This document shows, in pieces, positions 3,413-52,448 of a stretch of 64,000 bases of DNA (the first letter of the stretch is position 1; each line of letters begins with the position of its first letter). The DNA is taken from contig DASZOU010000022.1 of assembly GCA_035550655.1 (NCBI GenBank), positions 31,096 through 95,095 on the forward strand, given 5' to 3'. The position numbers and the translations under genes are program-made. This DNA is from Mycobacteriales bacterium (GTDB taxonomy: Bacteria > Actinomycetota > Actinomycetes > JAFAQI01). The notes under the pieces are model-generated. The model worked only from the letters and a program-made list of their open reading frames with translations, was not told where the DNA came from and made no database searches.

Positions 3413-5021
3413 GGACCTTCCCCGTCGCGTTGCGGGGCAGCGCGTCGTGCCGGACGATCTCGCGCGGCACCTTGTAGTTGGCGAGCTGCTGCTTGACGTG
3501 CGACCGGAGCTCCTCCGAGGTCGCGCTGGCACCCTCACGAAGGACCACGTGGGCGACGAGGGCCTGCCCGAACTTCTCGTCCGGCATCCCGACGACGGCT
3601 ACGTCGAGCACGGCGGGATGGCTGTGCAGGACATCCTCGACCTCGGCCGGGAAGACGTTCTCGCCACCGGAGACGATCATGTCGTCGTCGCGACCCTCGA
3701 CGTACAACCGGCCGTCGTCGCCGAACCGCCCCAGGTCGCCGATCGATGCGAGGTTCCCGAGCCGCGCCTTGTCCTCACCGCTCGTGTAGCCCTCGAAGGA
3801 CATTCCGCTGCCTGCGAAGATGCGGCCGACCTCGCCGGGCGCGACGTCCTGGTCATTGTCGTCGACGATCCGCACGGACACGCCCTTCAGCACCCGGCCC
3901 GCGGTCGTCGGGGCTTCCCGGAGGTCGGCGGGACCGGCGACGCTCACGTACGCGATCTCGGTGGATCCGTAGAGGCTGTAGAGCACGTCGCCGAAGCGAT
4001 CCATGAATCGCGTGGCGAGCGTGGGGGCCAGCGCGGAGCCGGACAACGCCACGATGCGCAGCGAGCTCGTGTCGGGCGATGCATCGACGTCGAGCATTCG
4101 CTGGCACATCACCGGAACCGCCGCCATCGTGTCGGCCTGGTGCTTCTCGACGAGCGCCAGAGTGCCCGCAGGGTCGAACCGGCGCGACATCACGAGCGTC
4201 GAGTGCAGGAGCATCCCGATCGTCACGTTGCCGAGGCCCCAGGCGTGGAAGGTGGGCGCCGCGAGCACCGTGACGCCGCCGGCGCGGTACGGGATCGCGT
4301 CGAGCAGCGCGATGCCGCTGACCGCTCCCGTTATCGGGTTCGGCGATCCTCGCGCTGCCCCCTTCGGCCGTCCGGTCGTCCCGCTCGTGAGAATCACGTG
4401 CCGGCCTTCCACGCCGGGGGACGGCAATGCCGGAGCGTCCGCGTCGCCGTGCGCCGCCAGCAGTCCGGCGATGCTGTCCGACCGGTCATCTTCGTCGGTC
4501 CACGCCCACAGCCGCGGCCGGGATCCGGCATGCTGCCGGACGATGTCGGCGAACTCGTCGTCGGCGACGATCGCGGCAGCGTTCTCGCTGTCGAGCACGT
4601 CACCCAGCTGCGGCCCGGCGAAGCCGGTGTTGGCGTACAGCACATCCGCGCCGAGCTTCGAGATCGCCACCATCGCGACGATGAAGGCACCGGAGTTGCG
4701 CGCGAGCAGCGCGACGGAGTCCCCCGCACCGACGCCCTGCGCGGCCAGGCCGGCCGCGACGACGCTGCTTCGGCGGTCGACCTCCGCGAACGTGAGGGTT
4801 TCGCGATCGTCGATGACCGCGACGCCGTCGGGGTACCGCGCCGCGTTCGCGGCATACAGGCCGGCCGGCGTCCGGCCCCAATGACGCAACCCGCCGACGA
4901 CCCCGAGCAGGCGGTCGGGACGAACCGGCGTCGTGAGGCCGATTCGGTGAGCGACCTTCGCGGTCGCCCAGCCACCGCGCGCAACACCTCCGGCGAGAGA
5001 CGCCAGCCGGTCGACGACCAT
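3381..5021 (-). CDS. Acyl-CoA synthetase / AMP-dependent ligase (FadD-like)
   Basis: AMP-binding motifs ILTSGTTGRPKGA, YGSTE and the GRxDD-like GRDDDMIVSGGENV are present. The chosen start ATG at 5021 is preceded by an AGGAG Shine-Dalgarno sequence. The 5090 start in the track would overlap the upstream gene. Confidence 0.85.
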   Translation of the reverse strand: MVVDRLASLAGGVARGGWATAKVAHRIGLTTPVRPDRLLGVVGGLRHWGRTPAGLYAANAARYPDGVAVIDDRETLTFAEVDRRSSVVAAGLAAQGVGAGDSVALLARNSGAFIVAMVAISKLGADVLYANTGFAGPQLGDVLDSENAAAIVADDEFADIVRQHAGSRPRLWAWTDEDDRSDSIAGLLAAHGDADAPALPSPGVEGRHVILTSGTTGRPKGAARGSPNPITGAVSGIALLDAIPYRAGGVTVLAAPTFHAWGLGNVTIGMLLHSTLVMSRRFDPAGTLALVEKHQADTMAAVPVMCQRMLDVDASPDTSSLRIVALSGSALAPTLATRFMDRFGDVLYSLYGSTEIAYVSVAGPADLREAPTTAGRVLKGVSVRIVDDNDQDVAPGEVGRIFAGSGMSFEGYTSGEDKARLGNLASIGDLGRFGDDGRLYVEGRDDDMIVSGGENVFPAEVEDVLHSHPAVLDVAVVGMPDEKFGQALVAHVVLREGASATSEELRSHVKQQLANYKVPREIVRHDALPRNATGKVLKRKLVDPEA

Positions 5022-20965: not shown

Positions 20966-21676
20966 GTGGAGTCGGGCGGGGACTTGGCATTGCTGCGGAT
21001 GTCGGGCGTCTCCAAGCACTTCCGCCGCGGCCGCGAAGTCGTCGCCGCCGTCAACGACGTCAGTCTCGAGGTCCGCGCCGGTGAGTTCGTCAGCGTTGTC
21101 GGCCCGAGCGGGTCCGGCAAGTCGACGTTGCTGCATCTCGCCGGCGGTCTCGATCGCGCAGACACCGGCTCGGTGTGGGTGGACGGGCAGGACGTCTCGA
21201 CGCTGTCGGCGTCGGCCCTGGCGCGACTGCGTCGCCGGCACGTCGGATTCGTGTTCCAGTTCTTCCACCTGATCCCGAACCTGACGGTCGGTGAGAACGT
21301 CGCGCTGCCACTGGTCCTGGACGGCGGACGCCATGGTGACGATCGGGTCGCCGAGCTGATCGAACGGGTCGGCCTGGCGCCGCGAGCGCGGCACCTGCCG
21401 GGTGAGCTGTCGGGCGGCGAGATGCAGCGAGTGGCGATCGCGCGGGCGCTGGTCAACTCACCCCGCCTGATCCTCGCCGACGAGCCGACCGGCAACCTCG
21501 ACCGCGCGACCGGCGCCGAGATCCTCGCCGTACTGGAGGAGCAAGTCACCCAAGCGGGAGTGGCGCTGCTCATGGTCACGCACGACGAGGCCGCCGCCCG
21601 GCGCGCCGAGCGAACCCTGCACGTCGTTGACGGACAGCTGACCTCAACTCGGCGCGCCTCCGCCCGGCGGGGCTGA
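20966..21676 (+). CDS. ABC transporter ATP-binding protein (MacB/LolD-type)
   Basis: Walker A GPSGSGKST, Q-loop, signature LSGGEMQRV, Walker [12 protein letters not shown]. Confidence 0.9.
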   Translation: MESGGDLALLRMSGVSKHFRRGREVVAAVNDVSLEVRAGEFVSVVGPSGSGKSTLLHLAGGLDRADTGSVWVDGQDVSTLSASALARLRRRHVGFVFQFFHLIPNLTVGENVALPLVLDGGRHGDDRVAELIERVGLAPRARHLPGELSGGEMQRVAIARALVNSPRLILADEPTGNLDRATGAEILAVLEEQVTQAGVALLMVTHDEAAARRAERTLHVVDGQLTSTRRASARRG

Positions 21677-24858: not shown

Positions 24859-24879
24859 CCGCTCGGCTCACGGCGTTCG

Positions 24880-25236
24880 TGGAGGCGGCGGGATTCGAAC
24901 CCGCGTCCTTCGGCGGTTCATCAAGGCTTCTCCGGGCGCAGCCTGTTGCGGTTTTCTCAGCTCCAGCGGCGGCACAGGCGCCCCGCTGCGAGCTCAGTCA
25001 CTGTTTGATTTCCCTTGGATCCCCGTGACCGGGATCCGCGGTGGAGCCTCCTATCGATGCCAGGTCCTAGAGCGGAGGCGCCCCTAGGCTGACAGCTCTG
25101 CTACCTGTCAGGCAGCGAGAGCGAGCCGGTTGTTATCGGCATTTATTGAAGTTGCCGCGAGTGGTTTGCGAGATCACGCGACATCCTCGGCCCGCTTCCC
25201 TTGAATCGACGTCCGAAGTCGAAACCGTTCGCCCCC
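24880..25236 (-). ncRNA. ssrA: tmRNA (transfer-messenger RNA, SsrA), ~357 nt, CCA not encoded
   Basis: Reverse complement begins GGGGGCGAACGGTTTCGACTTCGGACGTCGATTCAAGGGAAGCGGGCCGAGG and ends …GGGTTCGAATCCCGCCGCCTCCA (tRNA-Ala-like acceptor with a G3:U pair). The internal tag ORF at 25108-25140 (minus) reads GCC GAT AAC AAC CGG CTC GCT CTC GCT GCC TGA, giving A-DNNRLALAA-stop. Confidence 0.9.
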
Positions 25237-26866: not shown

Positions 26867-26950
26867 CGCGGTTGCGCGGCGACTTTCCACAGTCACGGGC
26901 CGAAATCCCTTTATTCACAAGACAATTCAGGGCTTGACACTAGGCATTCT

Positions 26951-26966
26951 TCGAACATATGTTCGA
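26951..26966. promoter_or_regulatory. LexA SOS box (Cheo-type) TCGAACATATGTTCGA overlapping the -10 of the REP13E12 gene promoter
   Basis: Perfect match to the actinobacterial/mycobacterial consensus TCGAAC-N4-GTTCGA. TTGACA at 26934-26939 and TATGTT at 26958-26963 with an 18-nt spacer form a sigma-70-like promoter. Confidence 0.7.
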
Positions 26967-26969
26967 GTC

Positions 26970-28280
26970 GTGCTGGACCCCGAGTTCGATCGCATCTTCG
27001 GAAAGACGGATGCGCGGCTCGCTGTGCTGGAAGAGATGCCGGTGGGTGGCGCTCTCGCATCGGCACTCGTCGCGCTGCGGAGCCTGCAGATGGACGGGTA
27101 CGCCGCGGTCCGGGTTCATGCCCTGTGGTCGAAGGTCATCGCGTGGGCGGCGGCTCAACAGATGATCGCCACGAATGACTGCGTCAGCGGTGTGCGCGGA
27201 CTCGTCGGACCGCCGGACGATCCCCACGAGGCCTACGTGCTCGCCGCGCAGGAGATTGCGTGCGCCACCTCCGTCCCCTACCCGACAGCGATGGCGCAGA
27301 TCGAGCTCGTCGACCGGATCGGGGAATGCATGCCCGAGAGCTGGTCGGCACTCGACCGGGGCGACATCTCGTTGAACCACGTGAAGGCATGTCACCGCGC
27401 GACGCGCAACTGCCCGCCGAGGGTCGCCGCCGCGGTCGAAGCACAGGTGATCCCGCAGGCGGTTGCGCGTGGCTGGACGCCGAGCGAGCTCGCTCGCGCG
27501 GCGCGCAAGCTCATCATCACGATCGATCCGGAGGGCGCCGCGCAGCGCGAGGCGGAAGCCAAGACCAGGTCCGACGTCGAGTTCTTCCCGGGCGAGGACG
27601 GCATGGCCGGACTGAACTCGTTCGGCCCGGCTCCGCTGGTCCGAGAGATGGCCGACGTGATCGACGATCGTGCCGCAACGATGAAGCGTGAGGGCGACAA
27701 CCGATCGATCGGCCTGCGGCGTTTCCAGGCGCTGTACGACGCCGTCGTCGGCTCGTCGGCCGGCTCCAAGCCGAGTCCCGCCCGCGCGCACACGCTGCTG
27801 ACCGTCCCGCTCACCACGGTGCTCGGGCTTGATGACCAACCCGGCGAGCTGGCCGGCTACGGGCCGGTCACTGCGGCAACCGCGCGCCGGATCGCCGCAG
27901 ACTCGACGTTGAGCCGGCTCGTCACCGACCCGATGTCCGGTACGCCGATCGACCTGGGCCGAAAGTACAAGCCGTCGCGTCTACTGCGCGACCTCGTCAA
28001 GGCCACGCAGCCACGGTGCTCGATGATCGGCTGCTCCCGGCCGGCGTACCAGTGCGAGATGGACCACCGACTCGAGCACAACCGGGGCGGTGACACCAAT
28101 CCACAGAACCTGCAACCACTGTGCAAGCTGCATCACCAGCTGAAGACGAAGCAGCGCTGGAAGGTCGGCATCAACGCCGACGGCGAGCAGGAGTGGACCA
28201 GCTACCTCGGCTTCCGCTACGTCTCGCGCGACCGGGACCCGCGGGCCGGCGACCCCGACCCGCCGCGGCAGGTGGCGTGA
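26970..28280 (+). CDS. REP13E12-family protein (DUF222 N-terminal domain + C-terminal HNH nuclease)
   Basis: DUF222 body followed by CSMIGCSRPAYQCEMDHRLEHNRGGDTNPQNLQPLCKLHHQLK (HNH). The start is uncertain; in-frame GTG 26970 is used, and the track's TTG at 26934 lies inside the promoter. Confidence 0.8.
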   Translation: MLDPEFDRIFGKTDARLAVLEEMPVGGALASALVALRSLQMDGYAAVRVHALWSKVIAWAAAQQMIATNDCVSGVRGLVGPPDDPHEAYVLAAQEIACATSVPYPTAMAQIELVDRIGECMPESWSALDRGDISLNHVKACHRATRNCPPRVAAAVEAQVIPQAVARGWTPSELARAARKLIITIDPEGAAQREAEAKTRSDVEFFPGEDGMAGLNSFGPAPLVREMADVIDDRAATMKREGDNRSIGLRRFQALYDAVVGSSAGSKPSPARAHTLLTVPLTTVLGLDDQPGELAGYGPVTAATARRIAADSTLSRLVTDPMSGTPIDLGRKYKPSRLLRDLVKATQPRCSMIGCSRPAYQCEMDHRLEHNRGGDTNPQNLQPLCKLHHQLKTKQRWKVGINADGEQEWTSYLGFRYVSRDRDPRAGDPDPPRQVA

Positions 28281-28287
28281 CGAGAAC

Positions 28288-28764
28288 TCAGACCCAGCCT
28301 TTTGAGCGCCTGCCGGTCGCGCGCTCGATCTCACGCGCAGCGTCCCGCGCGGCGAGGGTCTGCCGCTTGTCGTAGGCACGCTTTCCGCGCGCCAAGGCGA
28401 TCTCGACCTTCACCTTGCCGTCCTTGAAGTACAGCTGCAGCGGGACGAGCGTGAGGCCCGACTCCTTGGTCTTGCCGACCAGCTTCGCGATCTCCTCGCG
28501 GTGAAGCAGCAGCTTGCGGCGCCGGCGCGGCTCATGGTTGGTCCAGGTGCCCTGCGTGTACTCGGGGATGTGCAGGTTCTCCAGCCACACCTCGCCGTCA
28601 CGCACTGTGGCGTAGGAGTCGACCAGCGACGCCCGCCCCGCACGCAGCGACTTCACTTCGGTTCCCTGCAGCACGACGCCTGCCTCGTAGACGTCCTCGA
28701 TCGCGTAGTCGTGGCGAGCCTTGCGGTTCTGCGCGATGAGCTTGCGGCCGGACTCCTTCACCAT
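28288..28764 (-). CDS. smpB: SsrA-binding protein SmpB
   Basis: 158 aa; [32 protein letters not shown]…LENLHIPEY…LLLHREE is the canonical SmpB sequence. Confidence 0.95.
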
Positions 28765-52218: not shown

Positions 52219-52448
52219 CGTTGGCCCATCCTTCGTAGTGACAGGTCGGGCCGGTTTCGCCATTGCTCCCCGCCGGGCTATGGCGACCAGTTCGTCGCCC
52301 GGTGGTTCATCGCTCCCAATTGCGACGCTAGGCACGAGGACTGGCGAATACCACGGGACAAGCGCCCGACTCGATGACCCGAATGCGGGGCGAAAAAACC
52401 ACCCGTCGTAGCTATTGCGCCGACGTCAGACACGCGGCTAACGGCAAG

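Follow-up and report, generated by a model that had tools for sequence, protein, structure and literature searches.

The DUF222-HNH gene described here is very probably a member of the SOS regulon of its host: its upstream sequence points to repression by LexA, a sigma-A-type promoter and a leaderless mRNA, and in its own lineage it behaves as a fixed, vertically inherited gene and not as an active mobile element. It lies in a 64-kb stretch of DNA from a Mycobacteriales bacterium, the whole of which was analysed and is called the window below. In M. tuberculosis, 13E12/DUF222 genes are already known to be controlled by LexA, so that the window gene is a further example of a known link and in that respect brings little that is new. 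What it offers is a clean case, with a perfect-consensus operator and a fixed start codon, from an uncultured Mycobacteriales lineage; and comparison with its relatives indicates that control of DUF222-HNH genes by LexA is old, occurs widely among Actinomycetota and is not a quirk of the M. tuberculosis repeats. The one point worth following in this locus is a DnaA-box-like partner element upstream of the SOS box, which is described last.

The promoter and its SOS box

The features of the locus are summarized in Table 1. The promoter segment, gggcTTGACActaggcattctTCGAACATATGTTCGAgtcGTGctggac, contains TTGACA, an 18-nt spacer and TATGTT, with the -10 hexamer covered by the SOS box. Counted from the start codon, the box runs from about -19 to -4, and 3 nt separate its end from that codon. 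The consensus to which it conforms, TCGAAC(N4)GTTCGA, was defined by mutagenesis in M. tuberculosis, and the LexA protein of S. venezuelae uses the same motif; the exact match that had been claimed in the original prediction thus holds, at 12 of 12 positions, against an experimentally defined actinobacterial consensus.

Table 1. Coordinates of the features of the DUF222-HNH locus, in positions of the window.
Feature	Position	Strand	Basis
Distal DnaA-box-like element, CTTTCCACA	26883-26892	+	2 mismatches to TTGTCCACA
Proximal DnaA-box-like element, TTATTCACA	26911-26920	+	1 mismatch to TTATCCACA
-35 hexamer, TTGACA	26934-26939	+	Promoter scan
SOS box (putative LexA operator), TCGAACATATGTTCGA	26951-26966	.	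12/12 match to TCGAAC-N4-GTTCGA
-10 hexamer, TATGTT (TAnnnT), within the SOS box	26958-26963	+	Promoter scan and relatives
CDS, DUF222-HNH protein, 436 aa, GTG start	26970-28280	+	Identical NCBI protein; starts of relatives
DUF222 domain, aa 92-345, mostly helical	27243-28004	+	Pfam PF02720
HNH nuclease domain, aa 354-394	28029-28151	+	Pfam PF01844

Counting TCGAAC-N4-GTTCGA sites had been proposed along with the prediction as a calibration of its specificity. Run on the 64-kb window, the count gives this single perfect site, where 0.0015 would be expected from the base composition (69% G+C; ~0.11 per 5 Mb); no perfect box appeared in 100 dinucleotide shuffles of the window. The promoter scan likewise returned one promoter-like site between 26500 and 28800, against a shuffle mean of 0.2. 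The two hexamers, their spacer and the palindrome are therefore confirmed at the positions first proposed, and the arrangement is far beyond chance. The window holds no further SOS boxes from which a regulon could be calibrated, and no LexA gene was found in it. A weak second box, TGGACCCCGAGTTCGA at 26974-26989, has 2 mismatches and was rejected as an operator; it lies within the CDS, where it arises from E-F-D codons, and it is not kept in the orthologous loci L082 and L001.

Upstream of the promoter, a gene of the CsoR family ends 84 nt before the SOS box. No terminator-like site was found between csoR and the DUF222-HNH promoter, so that read-through from csoR could yield transcripts that carry a leader and are independent of LexA.

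The start codon and the form of the mRNA

The gene had been listed as 26934-28280, from a TTG start that was assigned mechanically. The assignment of this frame to a DUF222-HNH gene stands, but its start does not, and the real start is GTG 26970. Translation from this GTG gives a product identical to a 436-aa NCBI record from a ‘Mycobacteriales bacterium’ MAG, and three independent gene calls give the same length. Each of the 15 relatives in the window clade has an ATG at the corresponding position, 3 nt beyond the box; eight of the 15 have no in-frame start between the upstream stop and that ATG, and amino-acid conservation begins at the codon 3 nt past the box. The spacer between the -35 and -10 hexamers is 17 nt in most of the relatives, as against 18 in the window, which puts the TTG of TTGAC out of frame with the coding sequence there. 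The frame is open from 26934, and this is what speaks for translation from TTG 26934 with an intragenic box in place of a promoter operator. That reading is nevertheless scarcely credible: the TTG is part of the -35 hexamer itself, its frame is lost in most relatives, and both the conserved ATG and the onset of protein conservation lie downstream of the box. An upstream start that would make the box intragenic, which the original prediction had named as its weak point, is excluded by the comparison with the 15 clade relatives, and the SOS box is placed in the promoter by the start at GTG 26970.

Two features were taken to indicate a leaderless mRNA: a distance of 6-7 nt from the end of the -10 hexamer to the start codon, and the lack of a Shine-Dalgarno sequence. 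The window promoter has both: in TATGTT-CGAGTC-GTG the last T of the -10 hexamer is 6 nt before the start codon, there is no Shine-Dalgarno sequence, and the same spacing is found in the 15 clade relatives. Since a ribosome-binding site would not fit into 6 nt, the DUF222-HNH mRNA is probably leaderless and translated from GTG 26970. There is an experimental precedent in Rv2100, a 13E12 gene of M. tuberculosis, the transcription start of which has been mapped inside its box.

Conservation of the operator

The operator was compared across 82 loci. Eighty of these came from a scan with the family alignment, with one genome per GTDB species, and an exact look-up supplied a further two, both close orthologues. 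All were picked by protein similarity only, and they come from Mycobacteriales MAGs, Frankia, Pseudonocardiaceae, Lentzea, Cellulomonas and others. In the regions upstream of the 82 genes (39 kb), 31 boxes are perfect and 22 have one mismatch; the flanks of the same loci (494 kb) contain no perfect box and nine with one mismatch. An extra one-mismatch box occurs at L015. Between 24 and 26 of the 82 loci have no box, and LexA control thus does not extend to the whole family.

Within the window clade the layout is the same in all 15 relatives, namely cTTGAC, 10-11 nt, the box with TAYGTT inside it, NNN and ATG. The box is perfect in 14 of them and has one mismatch in the other (L013). At the closest range, the 12 specified bases of the box are invariant in the window and its three syntenic orthologues, while the four syntenic orthologues have dS values of 0.83-1.0, near saturation, and dN/dS values of 0.15-0.33. 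That the box has remained invariant despite near-saturated dS strongly indicates selection on the operator and a trans-acting factor in common. A protein-pattern scan of metagenomes was uninformative: none of its 146 pattern matches was a relative.

Many distant relatives have a second promoter design, in which the -10 hexamer is TAnnnT and shares one base with the box, its final T serving as the T with which the box opens. In a subset of these, TGTCRG-N9-11-TAnnnT abuts the SOS box, with 10 matches in 2,160 nt, one of which (L008) is an overlap artefact; there are two matches elsewhere, in 819 kb. The promoter motif of RecA-NDp/PafBC is tTGTCRgtg-8 nt-TAnnnT, and the presence of TGTCRG beside the SOS box in distant relatives corresponds to the dual control reported for 13E12 genes of M. 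tuberculosis. The dual LexA and RecA-NDp (PafBC) promoters of mycobacteria thus have a counterpart in the distant relatives but not in the window promoter or the window clade, from which the RecA-NDp/PafBC motif is absent.

Control by LexA: precedent and proposed mechanism

It had been stated with the prediction that several 13E12 genes of M. tuberculosis are regulated by LexA, and the literature bears this out. ChIP-seq of LexA in that organism gave six peaks at 13E12 genes; the LexA-regulated members are Rv0336, Rv0515, Rv1702c, Rv2100, Rv1588c and Rv0095c (Davis 2002, Smollett 2012), and RecA-dependent induction by mitomycin C has been seen for five putative HNH endonucleases. The window gene has in common with these genes its protein family (DUF222 with HNH), its operator consensus and the location of the box at the start of transcription and translation (mapped for Rv2100). 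They also share a trap for annotation, in that a mechanically assigned upstream start makes the box seem intragenic. The differences are that the boxes of the M. tuberculosis genes have 1-3 mismatches, whereas that of the window has none; that several of the M. tuberculosis copies have a RecA-NDp/PafBC promoter, whereas the window clade has a TTGAC -35 element and no RecA-NDp motif; and that the M. tuberculosis copies are dispersed repeats, whereas the window gene is single in the window and syntenic. No M. tuberculosis proteins are among the best 120 homologues listed. The literature searched, coverage of which was incomplete, yielded no report of a link between DUF222 and LexA outside M. tuberculosis.

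In undamaged cells, a dimer of LexA would occupy the palindrome at 26951-26966, over the -10 hexamer, and RNA polymerase would be excluded. We infer this exclusion from the geometry, because the box contains the -10 hexamer, together with the known action of LexA. The perfect-consensus operator suggests that repression would be tight, as might be expected for a nuclease that would be harmful if it were made constitutively. DNA damage would lead to RecA-stimulated self-cleavage of LexA and so free the promoter; transcription would then start from or beside G26970, and translation at the same GTG, with no leader. The predicted product combines a helical, DNA-binding DUF222 region, with a probable ParB-like helix-turn-helix (HTH), and a zinc-stabilised HNH nuclease. 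The likeliest role for it would be to nick or cut DNA in a structure- or site-directed manner that feeds recombination or repair. The SOS inducibility that is thereby predicted for the window gene is strongly backed by the conservation of the box in relatives.

The DUF222-HNH protein

The family assignment made at the outset is supported by Pfam, in which both domains score above their cut-offs: DUF222 (PF02720) with E = 8.8e-20 and 71.7 bits against a gathering score of 24.4, and HNH (PF01844) with E = 8.9e-5 and 23.0 bits against 21.4. The HNH domain has C350, C355, C385 and H389 as putative zinc ligands and D365-H366, N380 and H388 as putative catalytic residues. In an alignment of 27 homologues (30-79% identity), C350, C355, D365, H366, C385 and H389 do not vary at all, and conservation is at least 90% for N380 and H388. 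As judged from these residues the HNH domain is intact, with a complete His-Asn-His set and a Cys/His zinc site.

The AlphaFold model (mean pLDDT 83) is all-helical to about aa 260 and has a beta-beta-alpha HNH fold at its end. A Foldseek search of the model against the PDB gave nothing at E < 0.001; among the matches below this threshold, the DNA-binding domains of ParB/Noc recur, with probabilities of 0.85-0.90, which by itself is a weak lead. When the family profile was compared with PDB sequences, Spo0J was matched over positions 85-141 with E = 0.024. A ParB/Spo0J-type HTH around aa 85-141 is thus moderately supported and is best regarded as a lead, not a result. Searches of NCBIfam and PADLOC with the protein gave no match, and a match in PHROGs is confined to the HNH domain.

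The overall architecture resembles that of the nucleases McrA, TagI and VcaM4I, in which an N-terminal DNA-recognition module is likewise followed by a C-terminal HNH domain, and the zinc-stabilised beta-beta-alpha-metal form of the HNH domain is common to all of them. However, the N-terminal module of the window protein is DUF222, for which the only signal is that of the ParB-like HTH. DUF222-HNH proteins are not known to be linked to DNA modification, and PADLOC gave no defence-system match for the window protein.

Host gene or mobile element

The original prediction had described the gene as a REP13E12 repeat of a selfish type, and this description does not fit the window copy. The gene order permease, csoR, DUF222-HNH and (convergent) smpB is kept in L001, L081 and L082, where identity is 94-96% for SmpB and 66-79% for the DUF222-HNH protein. 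A REP13E12 repeat in the strict sense would be present as several near-identical copies of ~1.4 kb per genome, whereas there is a single DUF222-HNH copy in the 64-kb window. Nor does the window gene display variable location, flanking repeats or carriage by phages or plasmids, the features by which a mobile element would be recognized: its stop codon is 7 nt from that of smpB, a search for flanking inverted repeats gave only short GC-rich matches of chance quality, and the family as a whole has four weak partial matches in 50,697 phage records and five in 72,556 plasmid records. The selfish label does fit other subfamilies. Paralogues within one MAG form discrete units of 1.58-1.61 kb with 89-98% nucleotide identity, promoter and box included, and a Lentzea copy has terminal inverted repeats of ~200 bp on either side. 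In addition, a TnpB gene has the same promoter design, and in the literature 13E12 repeats have been called insertion elements with phage attachment sites and have been linked to inversions. These observations speak for the alternative that the window gene, too, is an active REP13E12-type selfish or mobile element that spreads by homing or gene conversion at the time of the SOS response, in which case the box would have been kept because it travels with the element and not for any benefit to the host. Such an explanation is unlikely for a copy that is single in the window, occupies the same slot between csoR and smpB in four genomes, is under a dN/dS of 0.15-0.33, lacks flanking repeats, belongs to a family that is nearly absent from phages and plasmids, and has no match in PADLOC. 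The fixed, single-copy form under purifying selection argues instead that the protein has a genuine role for the host in its response to damage.

A different objection concerns the identity of the regulator. The binding of LexA to the box is predicted from sequence, the lexA gene is not within the window, and the nearest upstream gene, 84 nt away, encodes a repressor of the CsoR family; the palindrome could in principle be the operator of that protein or of the DUF222 HTH, or a structural hairpin. Taken together, these possibilities are very improbable. All 12 specified positions agree with a LexA consensus validated in both M. tuberculosis and S. venezuelae, and the box also stands ahead of family members that have no csoR neighbour and ahead of lexA itself in L151. 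Against a structural hairpin, no T-run or terminator follows the SOS box.

A DnaA-box-like element upstream of the SOS box

Many SOS boxes in the family have a DnaA-box-like element, TTGTCCACAGG, at 40-65 nt upstream; it is degenerate in the window. The extended consensus of the element is TTRTCCACAGG, and the 9-mer TTGTCCACA is the DnaA box of high affinity in both M. tuberculosis and S. coelicolor. Across 53 upstream segments, each 150 nt long, TTGTCCACA or TTATCCACA occurs 11 times without mismatch and 22 times with at most one, as against dinucleotide-shuffle means of 0.05 and 1.65, respectively. There is one perfect 9-mer of this kind in 339 kb of flanks, and there are none upstream of 21 family loci that have no SOS box. 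At the window locus, the core TCCACAG of the distal element (26886-26892) and the CACAA of the proximal one (26916-26920) do not vary among the four syntenic orthologues; at the proximal position, L082 carries TTGTCCACA without mismatch.

A wider scan of metagenomes, for TTGTCCACA followed after 25-55 nt by a perfect box, returned more than 120 matches. The spacing has a peak at 42-45 nt, which accounts for 37 of the 80 matches examined, and a DUF222 gene lies downstream in 35 of the 61 informative loci. It is tentatively proposed, as a possibility that we would rate somewhat below even, that many actinobacterial SOS promoters, those of DUF222-HNH genes above all, carry a second conserved cis-element, TTGTCCACAGG, which contains a high-affinity DnaA box and lies on the upstream side of the LexA box at a fixed distance of some 42-45 nt. 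Alternatively, TTGTCCACAGG may be the site of some other regulator, or of the ParB-like HTH of the DUF222 protein. If DnaA does bind TTGTCCACAGG, expression of the nuclease would respond both to DNA damage, through LexA, and to the status of the replication initiator, through DnaA; co-regulation of this kind, if true, would be undescribed for Actinomycetota. In E. coli, DnaA and LexA co-regulate uvrB and recN (Wurihan 2018, as cited in PMC8203912), and the DnaA-box-like 9-mers beside the SOS box at many family members are reminiscent of that case. Unlike it, the conserved motif here extends to TTGTCCACAGG, and the window copies have 1-2 mismatches. In the literature searched, the only match to the motif GTCCACAGG was a PCR primer.

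Genes of other kinds are also found behind this combination of elements. An ImuA'-like identity was considered for L099 and L134, but this was a reading of the sequences only, Pfam gave no match for L099, and neither locus is counted as evidence. Among the other genes found downstream of TTGTCCACA and the box are lexA, in L151, and a TnpB-type gene, likewise of leaderless design, in L087/L106.

A possible partner element at SOS-box promoters

A DnaA-box-like element, TTGTCCACA or TTATCCACA, with the extended form TTRTCCACAGG, lies 40–65 nt upstream of the SOS boxes (putative LexA operators) of DUF222-HNH genes. Perfect matches near SOS boxes number 11, against 0.05 expected from shuffled sequence, and none was found at the loci of the family that lack an SOS box. 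The two copies in the window are degenerate, with cores that are invariant across the orthologues sharing the csoR/DUF222-HNH/smpB slot. In distant DUF222-HNH genes, a RecA-NDp/PafBC-type motif, TGTCRG-N9-11-TAnnnT, immediately adjoins the SOS box, and these promoters match the dual LexA/PafBC design reported for the 13E12 genes of Mycobacterium tuberculosis.

A scan of metagenomes for the DnaA-box-like element together with a perfect SOS box also returned genes other than DUF222-HNH. Two contigs carry a TnpB-type gene with the same promoter design as the DUF222-HNH genes, in the order TTGTCCACAG, cTTGAC and perfect SOS box, with the ATG 1 nt past the box; this arrangement of sequence elements suggests that the TnpB would be SOS-controlled and translated from a leaderless transcript. 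On a third contig, tandem SOS boxes stand in front of a lexA gene, and TTGTCCACAG precedes the first box by 44 nt. Because the element also precedes this lexA, it is not restricted to DUF222 genes.

Features in the window and at related loci
Feature	Location	Strand	Basis or remark
tRNA-Asp call, 92 nt	window 21172-21263	+	ARAGORN
tmRNA	window 24877-25236	-	Rfam, 154 bits
DnaA-box-like element, window copies	window 26883-26892 and 26911-26920
Second SOS-like box, TGGACCCCGAGTTCGA	window 26974-26989		2 mismatches; within CDS, 8 nt past perfect box
smpB	window 28288-28764	-
c-di-GMP-II-GAG riboswitch aptamer	window 52241-52325	-	Rfam, 42.6 bits vs gathering score 40
DnaA-box-like element, relatives' loci	L082, L006, L017, L043, L066, L078, L030/33/34/77/80
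RecA-NDp/PafBC-type motif abutting SOS box	L024, L026, L027, L043, L045, L052, L056, L058, L074
Terminal inverted repeats around DUF222-HNH gene	L069:2612-2818 and 4022-4227		Lentzea sp. NBRC 105346
TnpB-type gene	L087 and L106, metagenome contigs WNFV01045045.1, WNGB01005295.1		OrfB_IS605 + Cas12f1-like TNB (Pfam)
lexA gene	L151, metagenome contig C688J35102_120903935		LexA_DNA_bind + Peptidase_S24 (Pfam)

The second SOS-like box in the window stems from codons for E-F-D, and neither of the orthologous loci L082 and L001 conserves it; it is therefore unlikely to be an operator. At the ARAGORN tRNA-Asp, nothing reaches the Rfam gathering score as a tRNA, and the call is likely to be a false positive.

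Gene neighbourhood

Between tmRNA and smpB lie three genes on the opposite strand, encoding an ArsP-type permease, a CsoR-type repressor and the DUF222-HNH protein. The start assigned mechanically to the permease reading frame, 25146, falls within the tmRNA gene, and the real start must therefore be farther downstream. DUF222-HNH and smpB are convergent, with stop codons just 7 nt apart (28280-28288) and no terminator-like site found; SOS-induced transcription could thus run antisense into smpB. This close convergence is not conserved, an amidohydrolase gene intervening in the orthologous locus L081.

Mobile-looking forms of the family

The inverted repeats around the DUF222-HNH gene in Lentzea are ~200 bp long and 86–97% complementary, with a 29-nt hairpin in each arm. 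The Lentzea copies with these repeats possibly represent a mobile-element form of the family, and they have no SOS box. Paralogues within single metagenome-assembled genomes (L030/L033/L034 and L077/L080) form discrete repeat units of 1.58–1.61 kb with 89–98% nucleotide identity, each running from ~10 nt before the DnaA-like box to just past the stop codon.
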